Assembly: GCA_964016885.1 (NCBI GenBank)
Contig: OZ024753.1
Coordinates: 12,958,001 to 13,022,000, forward strand
Reading direction: 5' to 3'
Origin: Eledone cirrhosa
Taxonomy: Eukaryota
DNA: 64,000 nucleotides
Shown here: one piece after another, positions 13,799 through 63,153 of the stretch
Layout: the number at the start of each line of letters is the position of its first letter
Position numbering within the stretch: position 1 is the stretch's first letter
Made by a program: the position numbers and the translations under genes
The notes under the pieces: generated by a model
Seen by the model: only the letters and a program-made list of their open reading frames with translations
Databases searched by the model: none
What the model was told of the DNA's origin: nothing

Positions 13799-14815
13799 AT
13801 GCCAAGAGTATTTACAGTTAGATCCTTAATGGACAAAACCACACAGCCAACATACCCTGTCATTAACCCTACACGGATGAAATTACAGGAGACAATTTTG
13901 AAGAACATTTTTAAAAATATTCAAAATTTCTACACGGTAGTAAATATGAAAATGAATTTAAGTATTTGGCGTTCGTACAACTGGAAGAAACGTAGTTTCT
14001 ATTTGTTTCGCCTGTTTATGATTATTTTATATATATTGGAGTGTATGCGATGTATCATTTATACAGTTATGTCTCCCGAGTTAGTGTTTTCAACTATAAT
14101 ATTCAATTCCTTTATTTCTGGACGAAATGTTGTTGTTCTTTGCTTAATATGTGATACTGTATATAAAGCTGACATGTACATTGAAGTCATTAAAAAATGT
14201 TCCCAGTTCAAACCATTTGGATGTAATTCAAAATATATTGAAACCTTATACAAATATTCGCGATGGAATATGTATATATTGACAATATTATTTGTAATTA
14301 TTCTTTTCATACTGAATTCATGGCCTTTTATAATGGATAACAGCATCAGTTTCATTAAAATATACACATATCCTATGTCAGAAGATACGACATATTTCAG
14401 AGGTGTTTGTTTTTTTAAACACATACTACATCTGCTTGACATAATTCCTTTCATTGTTTACATATTTGCATTGAAGATAATGCTAAATATTATATTCAAA
14501 GAATTCCGGATTATGTCTGAGCGTCTCAAACAGTATGGAGCTAACGACAATCTTACAAAGGATGCTGTGGATATTATAAATTTATGTAAACATTTTCAAG
14601 ATATGTGTCACTTTCTCGGGTTGACAAATATATTGATGCAAAAGCCAATATTGATGTTTCTTGTTATCAGTCAAATTTTGATTTATTCTACTATTTATGG
14701 GTACATAGTTAGATTAACACACGTACCAGAATTTTTATATATATTGACATTTTGTGTCCTTTGTAATTTTCACGCCTTGGAAGTGTCTCTCAAAGGTATC
14801 AAATTAAACATGTTG
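13799..14815 (+). CDS. GRL-1 (gustatory receptor-like 7TM ion channel) exon 1, 339 codons, approx. TM1-TM6
   Basis: Long non-repetitive ORF with several hydrophobic segments and the GR-like motif EF...HFQDMCHFLGLTN. Ends ...KGIKLNML|GTATGT (phase 0); the ORF track runs on into intronic microsatellite. Confidence 0.85.
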
Positions 14816-15921
14816 GTATGTATGAAAAAATGTATTCCTTTTGCTTCCGTTTGTGTCTTAATCCATCTATCTATCCATATCTCCATCTATCTATCTATTT
14901 ATATATATATATATATATATATATATATATATATATATGCCTATCTATCTATTTTTATATATACATATCTATCATAACTACCGATTAATATCTATCTATC
15001 TATCTATCTATCTATCTATCTCTCTATCTATCTATCTATCTATCTATCTATCTATCTATCTATCTCTCTACCAGACGTGTGTAACTTCGCGGAGAAGTTT
15101 CCGTTAATTTATGTAAGAAAAAAACGCGAGTTTTCAGTTAAATTTTATATTATTGTGTAACTTGACCCCCCGTCTGGACCTTCAGGTGGTGTGTCAACTC
15201 ATTTTCGCCCCTACAGTAATGTAACACAAACGGCAGAGTAAATGAATGTTTTTAAAATACTATAATATTTCCATCAAAACGCTGACGCGCATGTGTGTAT
15301 GTGCATATGTGTGCGTGTGTGTATGTGCATGCGTGTGTGTTCATGTGCATATGCATACATTTAGGCATGAGTATATAAATATAAACGTGCAAAGAGAGAC
15401 ACACTTTCAAAAATACACACTCACAGACATACATTCACATAAACGCACACACGTACATTCACACAACACGCACATACATTTACGCAAACACACACATACA
15501 TTCACACAAACACACACATACATTTACACAATCACACACATACATTCACACAAACACACATACGTTCATACAAAGACACACACATACATTTACACAAACG
15601 CACTCATGCGCATACATTCACACAGAGCGTAACAAATGGAACGCCAGCCGCTGTTTTTTGCTATACCTATTTCGCCATACCCTTCCTACCTTTTACACAC
15701 ACATACATTCCCTCCACACAGACACACATACACACACACACACACACACACACACACACACACACACACACACACACACACACACACACACACACACATG
15801 CATACACGCACACACACACACATGGTGTGACAGACGAAAATCGCTCATTTTATATATAGAAATATAGGATAAATGAACTCTGTTGATTAAAGGATGTTTG
15901 CTTTCGATTTACTCTTTCCAG

Positions 15922-15990
15922 ATAACTGATATACGTGAGAGTATATATGGGGTGACAATTACAGGACATGATTCAGAAGCTGCTTCAGTG
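15922..15990 (+). CDS. GRL-1 exon 2 (ITDIRESIYGVTITGHDSEAASV)
   Basis: actctttccAG acceptor, 69 nt, GTAAAA donor, phase 0/0. Same length and IxxIRxxI pattern as GRL-2 exon 2. Confidence 0.8.
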
Positions 15991-16089
15991 GTAAAAATCA
16001 CATTCAGATATCTTTTTTAATATATATTTAACAGTGTCACTATTTTATTTTTATTTATATGTTTTTGTTTCGTTCGTATTATATTGTAC

Positions 16090-60049: not shown

Positions 60050-60973
60050 CCACCAATCTCTGGGAGGGCTCTGTAGAAACAGTAGACAGCTTCTGCTACC
60101 TAGGTGACCGAATTAGCAGCAGAGATGGGTGTTCAGAAAGTACAATAACTAAGGTAAGAACAGGATGGAAGAAGTTTAGGGAACTACTACCACTGGTAGC
60201 GGCAAAAGGCTTCTCCCTCAGAATGAAAGGCAGACTGTATGATGCGTGTATCCGAACAGCGATGTTGCATGGTAGTGAGACCTGGGCGCTGAAGGTGGAA
60301 GACTTACGTAAATTAGAGAGAAACGAAGCCTGCATGCTCCGATGGGTGTGTAACAGTAATATACATGAACGACAAAGCATAAATGAATTGAGAGAGAGAC
60401 TGAGCATAATAGGAATCAAATGCTGTGTGCAGGAGAGGCGGTTGCGCTGGTATGGACATGTGATGCGTATGAAGGATGACAGCTGCATAAAAAGGTGCAG
60501 AGCACTAGAAGTCGATGGAAACCGCGGTGTGGTGAGACCCAAGATGACCTGGGATGATGTGATAAAAGCCGACCTTACCCAATTACACCTCTCAAAGGCA
60601 ATGACACACGACCGTGTCCTCTGGCGTCACGCTGTAATACAGGGTACCCGACCTTTCATGGGTACAAGCTGAAGCATATAGACAATATGCCCCCACGCCC
60701 CCCACCGCAAAGGGGTCGTGGAGGTGCCACGGCAAAAAAGCACCCAGCCCACACTGTGAAGTGGACGTGTAGGCGCCACGAAAAAGCAACCAGCACTCAC
60801 TGTAAATGAGGTTGGTGTTAGGAAGGGCATCCAGCTGTAGAAATCAGGCCACATCAGTTCCTGTATGAGCAAGGCATGGTCAGCCGACCAGACACTGGCC
60901 ACAACAGTACAACCCGTCTAACCCATGCTAGCGTGGAAGAACGGACGTAAAACGGTGATGATGATGATGATGA
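60050..60973 (+). mobile_element. RTE-clade LINE 3' fragment with (GAT)n tail
   Basis: VDSFCYLGD...KGRLYDACIRTAMLHGSETW...RRLRWYGHVMRM; 3' end GGACGTAAAACGGTGATGATGAT. Confidence 0.9.
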
Positions 60974-61996
60974 TATATGTATATGTATAGATATATATAT
61001 ATATATATATATATATATATATATACATATATATATATATGTATATGTATACATATATATGTATCTGTATACATGTATATATGTATATGTAAATATACAT
61101 ATGTATATGTATATGTATACATGTATATATGTATATGTAAATATACATATGTATATGTATATGTATATGTATATATATATATATATATATATATATGTAT
61201 ATATATATATATGTATATATACATATATATATATACATATATATATATATATATATATATATATATATATATATATATATATACATATACATATATATAT
61301 GTATATTTACATATACATATACATATATACATATATATATGTATATATATATATATATATATATATATATATATATATATATATATATATATACATATAC
61401 ATATATATATATGTATATTTACATATACATATACATATATACATATATATATATATATATATATATATATATATATATATATATATATATATATATATGT
61501 ATATATATATGTATATATGTATATATATATGTATATATATATATATATTAATATATATGTATATATGTACATATGTATATATATATATATACATATATAG
61601 ACATATATATATATACATATACATATATACATATATATATACATGTACATATATATATACATGTATATATATATATATACATACATATATACATATATAT
61701 GTATACATATATATATATACATATATATATATACACATATATATATAGATATATGCACAGACACACACACATATGTATATACATATAAATATATATATAT
61801 ACGTATATATATATACACATATATACATGTATATATATATGTGTGTGTGTATATATATATATATATATATATAAATATATATACACATTTATACAAATAT
61901 ATATGTGTGTATATCTATTTGTAAATCTATATATGTGTAATATGTGTATATATATATATATATATATATATATATATATATATATATATATATACA
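60974..61996. repeat. About 1-kb degenerate (TA)n tract just upstream of GRL-3
   Basis: Seen directly. Confidence 0.95.
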
Positions 61997-62163
61997 TCAA
62001 AGCTTTTCTCCATATCACTGTGTATTTCATCTGAGTGAATATTATCTGATTACTTAGCAACGATTACACAGCTTATTAGGACTTTATCTAGTTTGTCAGC
62101 TTTAGCTTCTCGAACGACTAGCAAACACTTAAACAAATACAGCTCGTCTCTCTGATTTTCGAA

Positions 62164-63153
62164 ATGCATAAGATTACAAGTATTGAAGAAGGCCAACACA
62201 GTGAAAGCTTGAAAATAAAAGACACGATATTTTTCAAGTTCCTGAAATATTTTTTAGAACATAATTATATGAGATTAAGTGAAATGATATCTTTACTGAA
62301 ATCACACACGTTCAAAGCATTGTGTTTGCTAGCTATTTATATTGTGGTCTTTATATATTTGATTCTAAACCCTATTTGCCTCATTGTTAATTTAACAACC
62401 TTAAAAGGTATACCTGATGCCAACATGTTTATGTATGGCCTCATTACATTTTGCTATTGTATAATGTCTATCCTATGTTACATGAAATACTTCAAAGAAC
62501 CTCATTTCAAGGAGATAATTGAAATATTGTCCAAAATTGAAATTGAAGAGAAAGATGGAAAACTGTACAGTTTCATATATTCATATAAGTCACTTTGTAT
62601 ATTTGTAGCCATGTATACTATTTCTATCATAATTGCAGAGCTCATAATACCTATTTTTAGTAAAGACAGTGATCTGTTCGATTTTCTAACATTTCAAATG
62701 ACGATGGATTATAAGTACCTCATGGTAATTTTAAAATTTACACTACAAATACTTTCCATTCTACCGCTGGTGATTGATCTGTATATAAGCATTTTACTTC
62801 AGCTTGATCTTACTCATGAGTTTAACAAACTGGCCAAGGAGGCTGAAGGGTACGTAAAGGTAATGCAATCCCCCAATCCGGAAGCTATCAAGAAATATGA
62901 AGAGATTAAAGAAATATGCAACAGACATGACAAACTGAGTTCATCACTGAGATTATTAAATGATTATTTTCAGTATATTTTAGGATGTCTCGTATTTGGT
63001 AGTATTCTTAGTTGTTGTCTTACAACTTACGGAATAATAAATAACTTATTACAAAATGATACGGATTCATACATTTATGTATTACTTACGACGTTCGGCT
63101 TCCTGTCTTTCTGGATTATACTAGTTTTGTTGGGCCTCCGTTTACATATATCG
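62164..63153 (+). CDS. GRL-3 exon 1, 330 codons (later exons not in window)
   Basis: Multi-TM ORF with AELIIPI (cf. GRL-2 AEFILPI) and EFNKL...RHDKLSSSLRLLNDYF. Ends LGLRLHIS|GTAAGT at the same phase-0 position as the paralogs. Confidence 0.85.

Follow-up and report, generated by a model that had tools for sequence, protein, structure and literature searches.

Two gustatory-receptor-like genes and the first exon of a likely variable-pocket, constant-pore cassette in the octopod Eledone cirrhosa

Introduction

The 7TMIC members Orco, MhOR5, BmGr9, Gr43a and Gr64a have in common their fold, the Pfam domain PF08395, three phase-0 introns at the 3' end of the gene and a T/S-Y...Q motif in S7b. 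Several insect gustatory receptor (GR) loci, namely Drosophila Gr39a, Gr23a and Gr28b, Anopheles Gr9a-n and Blattella Gr60a-m, are arranged as cassettes in which tandem first exons, each encoding six transmembrane helices and carrying its own start and donor, are spliced to three common small exons encoding TM7, a layout that recurs in the locus described here. Exons at the insect loci are gained, lost and pseudogenised (PMC2204066; PMC6175461; available parts). GR-like (GRL) proteins have already been reported from Mollusca (available part of PMC7746228), and their use for gustation seems to be confined to arthropods according to the available text of a review (PMC12635824). Outside arthropods there are almost no functional data on GRLs. 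Cephalopods have few lineage-expanded chemosensory GPCRs (available part of PMC11886862).

Results

Two four-exon GRL genes

The window (the whole 64,000-nucleotide stretch analysed here) is from an octopod, in keeping with the cephalopod origin proposed in an initial sequence-only reading. That reading had described three co-oriented first exons of 330–339 codons, about 22–26 kb apart and ending at a phase-0 GT. All three are present on the + strand, each running from an ATG to a phase-0 GT, and the spacings measure 22,394 and 25,971 nt. The first two exons open the following genes:

13799..14815, + strand: gene 1 (GRL), long first exon; 339 codons, predicted S0–S6, phase-0 donor GTATGT
15922..15990, + strand: gene 1, exon 2; 69 nt, the weakest exon call
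20259..20348, + strand: gene 1, exon 3; 90 nt, predicted S7a and beta-hairpin
25196..25249, + strand: gene 1, exon 4; carries the stop codon, with SYhhhhhQT in the predicted S7b pore helix
36193..37191, + strand: gene 2 (GRL), long first exon; 333 codons
40716..40784, + strand: gene 2, exon 2; 69 nt
41849..41938, + strand: gene 2, exon 3; 90 nt
47310..47396, + strand: gene 2, exon 4; has TY, with the Q in another frame

Completion of the two genes by 69-nt, 90-nt and terminal exons, as proposed, gives spliced products of 409 aa for gene 1, with zero internal stops, and 414 aa for gene 2, across junctions that are all AG/GT and all phase 0. The same succession of 69-nt, 90-nt and terminal phase-0 exons is found in the cassette, gene 4 and C29a. 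The spliced models match a profile of 12 public homologs through its C-terminal end (E 2e-34 for gene 1 and 1e-29 for gene 2), while the read-through of gene 1 reaches only E 2e-15. Exon 3 has leave-one-out scores of 47–62 against a profile built without the query, with recovery of 6/6 true exons. The leave-one-out misses are gene 1 exon 2, whose score of 10.6 is reached by 3 of 2,024 background candidates, and gene 2 exon 4, whose 13.2 is the lowest in the exon-4 set.

The (S/T)Yhhhh motif noted in the terminal exons is seen in gene 1, which reads SYhhhhhQT; gene 2 has the TY but lacks an in-frame Q. Across the six terminal exons, T/S, Y/F and Q are present in five, gene 2 being the exception, and in these 5/5 intact exons of this genome the last motif position, that of the gate, is T rather than F. 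Exon 4 of gene 2 reads TYVVADNPF, and the pore helix looks frameshifted because a Q-S-I-stop sits in another frame of the same exon (47345–47356); a small frameshift within the helix is probable from the sequence. Variant TM7 motifs have been described for the family (available parts of PMC9998090 and PMC7746228).

Between the two genes, the first exons show 24–25% identity. That of gene 1 is 33% identical to P0004/P0056, and both genes have relatives at 33–41% identity in other genomes. Both represent older lineages; the recent expansion lies in the cassette locus. No further GRL exons were found in the 140 kb upstream and 130 kb downstream of the cluster, the one match there covering 55 residues at E 0.015.

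The third first exon opens a probable cassette

The third exon had been read as another gene of the array. It does belong to the GRL family and to a tandem series, but it does not stand alone, being the first variable exon (V1) of a ~285-kb cassette:

62014..62163, + strand: leader, putative promoter; 150 nt, copied with every young variable exon
62164..63153, + strand: V1, the leading variable first exon of the cassette GRL locus, which has 16 in all and 12 intact; 330 codons
G000:C13:13282184-13282252, 13302335-13302424, 13305276-13305326, beyond the window: shared constant exons; one set after the 16 first exons

The 16 tandem first exons extend over ~260 kb; 12 are intact and 84–97% identical, and 4/16 are broken. 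Deletions are seen in V4. Each variable exon comes with an ATG, a leader and a GTAAGT donor of its own, with an identical 15-nt donor kept in 12/12 intact copies, and the 150-nt leaders of the young exons are 90–93% identical to that of V1. A single set of three small 3' exons lies downstream of the 16 first exons, each single-copy within 464 kb. No private 3' exon copies were found between the variable exons, and none of 1,678 candidates in the 261-kb interval between V1 and the constant set qualified as an exon 3 (best score <=8.2). A genome-wide search for the cassette exon 3 returned one intact copy and one broken orphan. Two further places in the genome, C3 and C29, likewise have a surplus of first exons.

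Orphan exon fragments occur at C13:13.927 Mb and C3:362.90 Mb. The latter was considered as a retrocopy that would prove splicing and was rejected, having been duplicated at the DNA level together with its intron flanks and containing a stop and an altered donor; matches at C1676 and C13:12.838 Mb are chance repeat matches. Four contig runs over 62000–63250 yielded no contig joined across the V1 donor and are uninformative on splicing either way; in E. cirrhosa neither reads nor contigs were seen to link a variable exon with the constant exons. Runs X1–X3 behave like DNA and may stem from the assembly's own study. In run X4, whose kind is not on record, one short contig is identical to V1 and a second fits the V15 pattern at 9/9 listed positions; these were left out as expression evidence.

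At each of the two orthologous loci of Octopus sinensis, automated RefSeq models attach differing first exons to 3' exons that are identical. Isoforms X1 and X3 of LOC118764607 have 71 identical C-terminal residues, 81% identical to the E. cirrhosa cassette, behind first exons that are 45% identical (63/141), and the modelled isoforms of LOC118764548 join three different first exons to common downstream exons. The constant exons of O. sinensis LOC118764607/608/606/548 and O. bimaculoides LOC106880719 are orthologous to those of E. cirrhosa (80–86% identity), and their first exons belong to the same clade at ~35–37% identity to V1. These loci are labelled 'uncharacterized' in RefSeq, UniRef A0A0L8FL56 is auto-named 'Gustatory receptor', and no papers citing the locus ids were found.

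Family assignment and fold

Membership of the GR-like 7TM ion-channel family, as first suspected, is supported by a Pfam 7tm_7 match on V1, by the fold of an ortholog and by the three phase-0 3' introns. The Pfam match is above the cut-off for V1 (E 1.2e-8), but the first exons of the other two genes have none; among four orthologous public proteins PF08395 is matched by P0076 and P0019 and not by P0075 and P0072. The top ESM Atlas clusters are GR-like (score 0.96). A model of the O. sinensis ortholog P0075 (pLDDT 88), built on an alignment of octopus, other mollusc and unnamed homologs, gave 18 Foldseek matches at E<=0.001, all of them Orco/OR/GR. It superposes on these proteins with Z 21.4–27.2 and an rmsd of 3.8–4.4 over 315–368 residues, the next fold scoring Z 7.8; identity to solved 7TMIC structures is only 9–14%. 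A model of V1 by itself is of middling quality (pLDDT 62; Foldseek E>=0.15), with weak matches to the same Orco/OR/GR proteins, and coiled coils dominate the V1-only structure search in VIA. Counts of K/R in V1 are 3, 6 and 9 in the predicted inside segments against 1, 2 and 0 outside, over segments of unequal length; the fold match would imply an intracellular N-terminus.

A class A GPCR reading was rejected on fold, GPCR chains appearing only at E>=0.68 with TM-scores of 0.14–0.16; no GPCR Pfam family matched the three first exons. A chemotactile receptor of nAChR type was likewise rejected, since P0075 is modelled as a purely helical 7TM bundle like Orco/GR. Word-index protein searches with V1 and a 7-sequence alignment gave no matches, which reflects sensitivity because a full HMMER scan gave 51. 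A scallop GRL query found no match in this genome, a result that does not show absence.

Selection on the variable exons

The fast-diverging, lineage-specific expansion that had been proposed is evident in an omega of ~2 and in the young exons, which form their own clade on a long stem in a quick tree of 6/12 intact exons, insect GRs being absent from it. The M0 model gives omega 2.1–2.2, with omega=1 rejected at p 3e-6 and 1.5e-5. Divergence (p) is 0.054 at 0-fold sites against 0.033 at 4-fold sites and mostly 0.027–0.033 in within-group flanks; the V1–V6 intron flank, a high-copy repeat, stands at 0.070, above the 0-fold sites. The 12 intact exons contain 0 stops against 15.6 expected, a figure inflated by their having been picked as intact when 4/16 are broken. 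Membrane helices S2–S6 (132/330 sites) take 135/222 amino-acid changes, a concentration reached by 8/329 circular shifts, although the enrichment of amino-acid over silent changes is not significant (Fisher p 0.14, with only n=34 silent changes). Homoplasy is high, 27–35% of site pairs being incompatible, and the M2a site test may therefore come out too high through gene conversion. In insect GRs these helices form the ligand pocket, which is tuned to small molecules (available part of PMC12635824).

Discussion

In our reading the window contains two four-exon GRL genes, followed by the leading member of a row of 12 intact first exons. Each of these 12 is likely spliced to one common 3' set 261 kb downstream, and the products are predicted ligand-gated cation channels that likely serve as chemoreceptors. 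Judged from the sequence, a chemoreceptor cassette with a variable pocket and a constant pore is the likely best reading. From the ortholog model, the variable exon is predicted to encode S0–S6, with the pocket and the larger part of the cytosolic anchor; S7a, the beta-hairpin and S7b, the pore helix, would come from the constant exons. The chemosensory role itself is putative. If insect GR/OR biology is a guide, promoter choice would pick one first exon, its donor would splice to the first constant acceptor, four subunits would assemble into a channel, and ligand in the S2–S6 pocket would open the S7b gate. Duplication of the first exon alone could thus provide new specificities on a fixed pore, to be retuned by selection.

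The additional first exons might instead be orphan partial duplicates from retroelement-rich segmental duplication, one or a few being spliced while the rest decay. Repeat units of ~14 kb that are ~96.6% identical over 8 kb, flanks included, the 4/16 broken exons and the orphan fragments elsewhere all fit such an origin, but it predicts omega ~1 and ~16 stops, whereas omega is ~2 with 0 stops and the donor is kept in 12/12, and more than one first exon is put to use in the O. sinensis models; we regard it as very unlikely. That each first exon is a separate gene, with 3' exons missing or too divergent to find, or a read-through six-helix protein without a pore, is scarcely credible: exons 2 and 4 are indeed short and weakly conserved, as the misses for gene 1 exon 2 and gene 2 exon 4 illustrate, and the unplaced contig C29 carries related genes, which means that the region is imperfectly assembled, but there is no assembly gap (N) from V1 through exon 4, some copies are only 3.8–5 kb apart, exon 3 is recovered 6/6 where it exists and is absent from the interval, and the read-through tails vary among copy groups and enter repeat sequence. 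A different objection leaves cassette and fold in place and gives them another job, such as internal nutrient sensing, heat or light sensing, development, or reproductive or defence recognition. NvecGrl1 is reported to act in body patterning, and Gr28b to sense heat and light (available parts of PMC7746228, PMC5850775 and PMC6175461), and diversifying selection would equally fit gamete or immune recognition. Against this, exon birth-and-death with change in S2–S6 fits the small-molecule pocket tuning of GRs (PMC12635824, available part), and a thermal or developmental role would predict conservation; we consider a job other than external taste or smell rather unlikely.

On the chemoreceptor cassette reading, 12 positively selected pocket variants on one pore would make the chemosensory question directly testable. 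More tentatively, a cassette that arose independently in octopuses at two or three loci could possibly give them, in addition to the chemotactile receptors, another means of contact taste or smell, in which promoter-chosen exons and mixed tetramers sharing S7 would allow combinatorial tuning and the 12-exon burst might track diet or mates.

Vertebrate clustered protocadherin and UGT1A loci combine variable first exons, which have their own promoters, with common constant exons; the E. cirrhosa cassette has the same exon layout with unrelated proteins. The nAChR-derived chemotactile receptors of cephalopods are likewise expanded, diversifying ion-channel receptors in octopus (available part of PMC11526382), but they are a pentameric family with tested ligands and expression, unrelated to the predicted GRL channels. 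An octopus case of the Gr39a/Gr60a-m design was not found in the literature searched. With 12 intact first exons the E. cirrhosa locus compares with the 13 of Blattella Gr60a-m; its young exons have an overall omega >1, whereas selection on Gr39a is reported to be mainly purifying, and relaxed or positive on duplicated exons, and its S7b motif ends in QT where animal GRLs have QF. Unlike the insect loci it lies in a mollusc and occupies ~285 kb, and we liken it to them by layout, claiming no orthology. We infer that the octopus and insect cassettes are convergent; if so, the ancestral GRL layout of one long exon and three short phase-0 exons has repeatedly favoured cassettes across distant phyla.

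The third long exon very probably opens a cassette locus

All three of the long first exons proposed by the sequence-only reading, ending at the same phase-0 GT, are present in the window (G000:C13:12,958,001–13,022,000; an animal assembly totalling 3.0 Gb):

13799–14815, gene 1, long hydrophobic first exon, ends at a phase-0 GT
36193–37191, gene 2, long hydrophobic first exon, ends at a phase-0 GT
62164–63153, V1, long hydrophobic exon, ends at a phase-0 GT

Splicing the gene models confirmed that genes 1 and 2 are completed by 69-nt, 90-nt and terminal exons, giving 409 and 414 aa, with AG/GT at every junction and stop-free frames. 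The two genes are 24–25% identical to each other and V1 is 21% identical to either. In the terminal exon of gene 2, TY is present in frame but Q is not, and a Q-S-I-stop lies in another frame, so this may be a frameshifted copy. The probable small frameshift lies in the pore exon at window 47343–47356; either the allele is truly broken or the assembly is wrong here. A run of 14 copies of a 44-nt unit (window 41924–42552) begins inside gene 2 exon 3; the unit includes the donor of that exon, which leaves a row of spare GTAAGT sites.

The array had been read as three tandem genes. The gustatory-receptor-like (GRL) cluster is real, but its third element very probably opens a Gr39a-like cassette, of which V1 is the first variable exon. 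We examined 400 kb downstream of the window and found 16 first-exon copies from V1 onward (12 intact, four broken), followed by one set of constant exons:

C13, + strand, intact variable exons, first six starts: 13,020,164; 13,038,483; 13,052,806; 13,072,329; 13,078,388; 13,127,031
C13, + strand, intact variable exons, last six starts: 13,150,887; 13,161,820; 13,184,233; 13,189,050; 13,215,955; 13,250,161
C13, + strand, broken variable exons: a copy carrying deletions; a copy truncated at its 5' end; an old copy with a stop (36% identical); another old copy cut at its 3' end
C13:13,282,184–13,282,252, constant exon 2, single, after the variable exons
C13:13,302,335–13,302,424, constant exon 3, single
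C13:13,305,276–13,305,326, constant exon 4, single

Across 464 kb, blastn found each constant exon once, and the sole N gap lies past constant exon 4. Leave-one-out scoring recovered six of six true exons 3 (scores 47–62), a range that none of the 1,678 exon 3 candidates between V1 and exon 2 reached; exons 2 and 4 separated cleanly in five of six cases each. A profile scan placed C-terminal pieces in the region only at genes 1 and 2, the constant set and gene 4, a further complete GRL downstream of the constant exons (C13 ~13.367 Mb). Genome-wide searches, which score best candidates only, returned one intact constant exon 3 and one broken orphan.

The orphan (C3 ~362.90 Mb; L071:4786–5387) is a DNA-level copy bordered by ~240 and ~270 nt of intron sequence, and carries a stop, a 3-nt loss and an altered donor. 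The donor region of the gene 4 first exon (C13 ~13,367,600; L045:5600–5710) is tandemly triplicated with a unit of ~44 nt. About 620 kb beyond the constant exons (C13 ~13.927 Mb; L072:5542–5910) lies a 5' piece of a young variable exon in inverted orientation; its identity to V1 is 95%. The seven young exons V9–V15 carry, ~20–120 nt past their donors, a stub that matches the old broken V8 at its 3' end and donor, which suggests an origin through recombination into a V8-type unit.

The window also holds satellite arrays (8671–10296, 65 nt x 25; 31478–31865, 91 nt x 4) and, in introns and spacers, transposon-like ORF remnants (27140–27900, 30246–31460, 42840–43500, 44346–46466), with further remnants at 47940–48500, 51705–53063, 56674–57696 and 59917–60669. 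Among nine window ORFs scanned, only 27493–27900 gave a Pfam match (GIY-YIG, E 2.9e-5); retroelement and mariner-like labels of the remaining remnants were assigned by eye.

Family, fold and organism

The window cluster and cassette almost certainly belong to the GRL family, in agreement with the proposed GR-like 7TM channel identity. V1 matches PF08395 (E 1.2e-8), ESM Atlas places it beside GR-type clusters (0.96), and a profile search gave 51 matches, led by octopus proteins and followed by GRLs of other molluscs and GR/OR-like proteins. The suggested structural comparison found similarity to OR/GR-type channels, weak for V1 and strong for the Octopus sinensis ortholog, P0075. The V1-only model is mediocre (pLDDT 62.5) and matches Gr43a, AgamOR28, BmGr9 and MhOR5 weakly (E of at least 0.15). 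The full-length P0075 model, folded using a 50-row alignment, has pLDDT 88 with S7a, a hairpin and S7b visible; its structure search returned 18 chains at E<=0.001, OR/GR/Orco only. Z for these proteins is 21.4–27.2, against 7.8 for the next fold. The fold and helix assignment of the cassette products are predicted from this ortholog. The pore motif ends QT, not QF, in all intact G000 GRL terminal exons and octopus homologs; elsewhere in molluscs it is QF in abalone and one gastropod homolog, and QT in one scallop homolog.

The genome, previously called probably cephalopod, is on sequence grounds that of an octopod. The molluscan haemocyanin beta-sandwich family has 39 matches in it, and the best single-stretch PDB matches of one haemocyanin unit are 1js8_A (855 bits) and then 4yd9_C (738), which we take to be octopus and squid proteins, respectively. 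Named close GRL homologs all come from O. sinensis, O. vulgaris or O. bimaculoides.

Selection on the variable exons

The 12 intact exons are 84–97% identical in amino acids and apparently under positive selection, consistent with the fast divergence suggested earlier. NG86 means are dN 0.060 and dS 0.038, with dN>dS in 63 of 66 (non-independent) pairs. Our own codon likelihood gave M0 omega of 2.18 (MG) and 2.07 (GY), with p of 3e-6 and 1.5e-5 against omega=1, and 2dlnL of ~100 for M2a against M1a. Tree-free p is 0.054 at 0-fold and 0.033 at 4-fold sites, 0.027–0.033 in flanks (within-group leaders and the V9–V15 intron) and 0.070, above the 0-fold value, in the repeat-derived V1–V6 intron. 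The exons, ascertained for intactness, contain no stops against 15.6 expected. Of the 222 amino-acid changes, 135 fall in membrane S2–S6 (132 of 330 sites), as do 26 of the 36 top sites, a concentration reached in 8 of 329 circular shifts (Fisher test against silent changes, p 0.14); changes per site are 1.02 there and 0.45 in cytosolic S4/S5. Homoplasy is high (27–35% incompatible pairs), and the list of selected sites is therefore provisional.

The same layout elsewhere

A second GRL cassette lies at C3:69.44–69.88 Mb. C3 has 14 first-exon matches, and the 400 kb examined, part of that region, holds one complete exon 2–4 set and two lone exon-2 copies; part is a large near-identical inverted duplicate flanked by N gaps, which may partly be an assembly duplication. 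Contig C29 (48,954 bases) carries a complete gene plus a near-identical pair of first exons followed by one exon 2/3 pair, for which no exon 4 was found on it. The number of its O. sinensis counterpart, LOC118764606, adjoins that of the cassette locus, so C29 may come from close to C13, possibly from the gap at 13,334,371.

Among automated O. sinensis models, LOC118764607 X1 and X3 have 71 C-terminal residues in common but differ in the first exon (63 of 141 identical), the tail being 81% identical to the C13 constant region, and LOC118764548 X1/X3, X4 and X5 join three first exons (52–88% identical) to common exons 2–3. In a quick tree (48 rows, six of the 12 young exons, SH-aLRT, midpoint root), all C13 variable exons group with the first exons of these O. 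sinensis models and of O. bimaculoides (support 100), while a separate clade unites the young copies (support 100, stem 0.92). The cassette therefore appears older than these species and the burst of young exons is lineage-specific, as had been proposed for the expansion. In the X2 models P0073 (O. sinensis) and P0074 (O. bimaculoides), constant exon 2 lacks its 14 initial residues, which suggests that an alternative acceptor is conserved; its use would shorten the S6–S7a link.

Proposed mechanism and known systems

In a review (PMC12635824), GRs are tetramers with a pocket lined by S2–S6, an anchor of S7a and cytosolic S4–S6, and a pore lined by S7b. Mapped onto the predicted fold, the variable/constant exon boundary would divide pocket from pore. 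Alongside the observed layout, single constant set and selection pattern, we propose that promoter choice would select one first exon, that long-range splicing (261 kb for V1) would join it to the constant exons, and that the products would assemble as tetramers, gated chemically and serving a sensory role. Cassette and chemoreceptor role taken jointly are a reasonably likely reading.

Octopus orthologs stand in databases as uncharacterized or auto-named proteins. Our literature search, which covered few subscription papers, found no description of octopus GRLs or of a cassette outside arthropods and no mention of these LOC identifiers; supplements may list octopus GRLs. Molluscan GRLs are already known (PMC7746228), and two insect loci provide precedents for the architecture, Gr39a (PMC2204066) and Blattella Gr60a-m with 13 exons (PMC6175461). 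Both place variable first exons on shared exons, and the C13 locus has a like layout with 12 intact variable exons.
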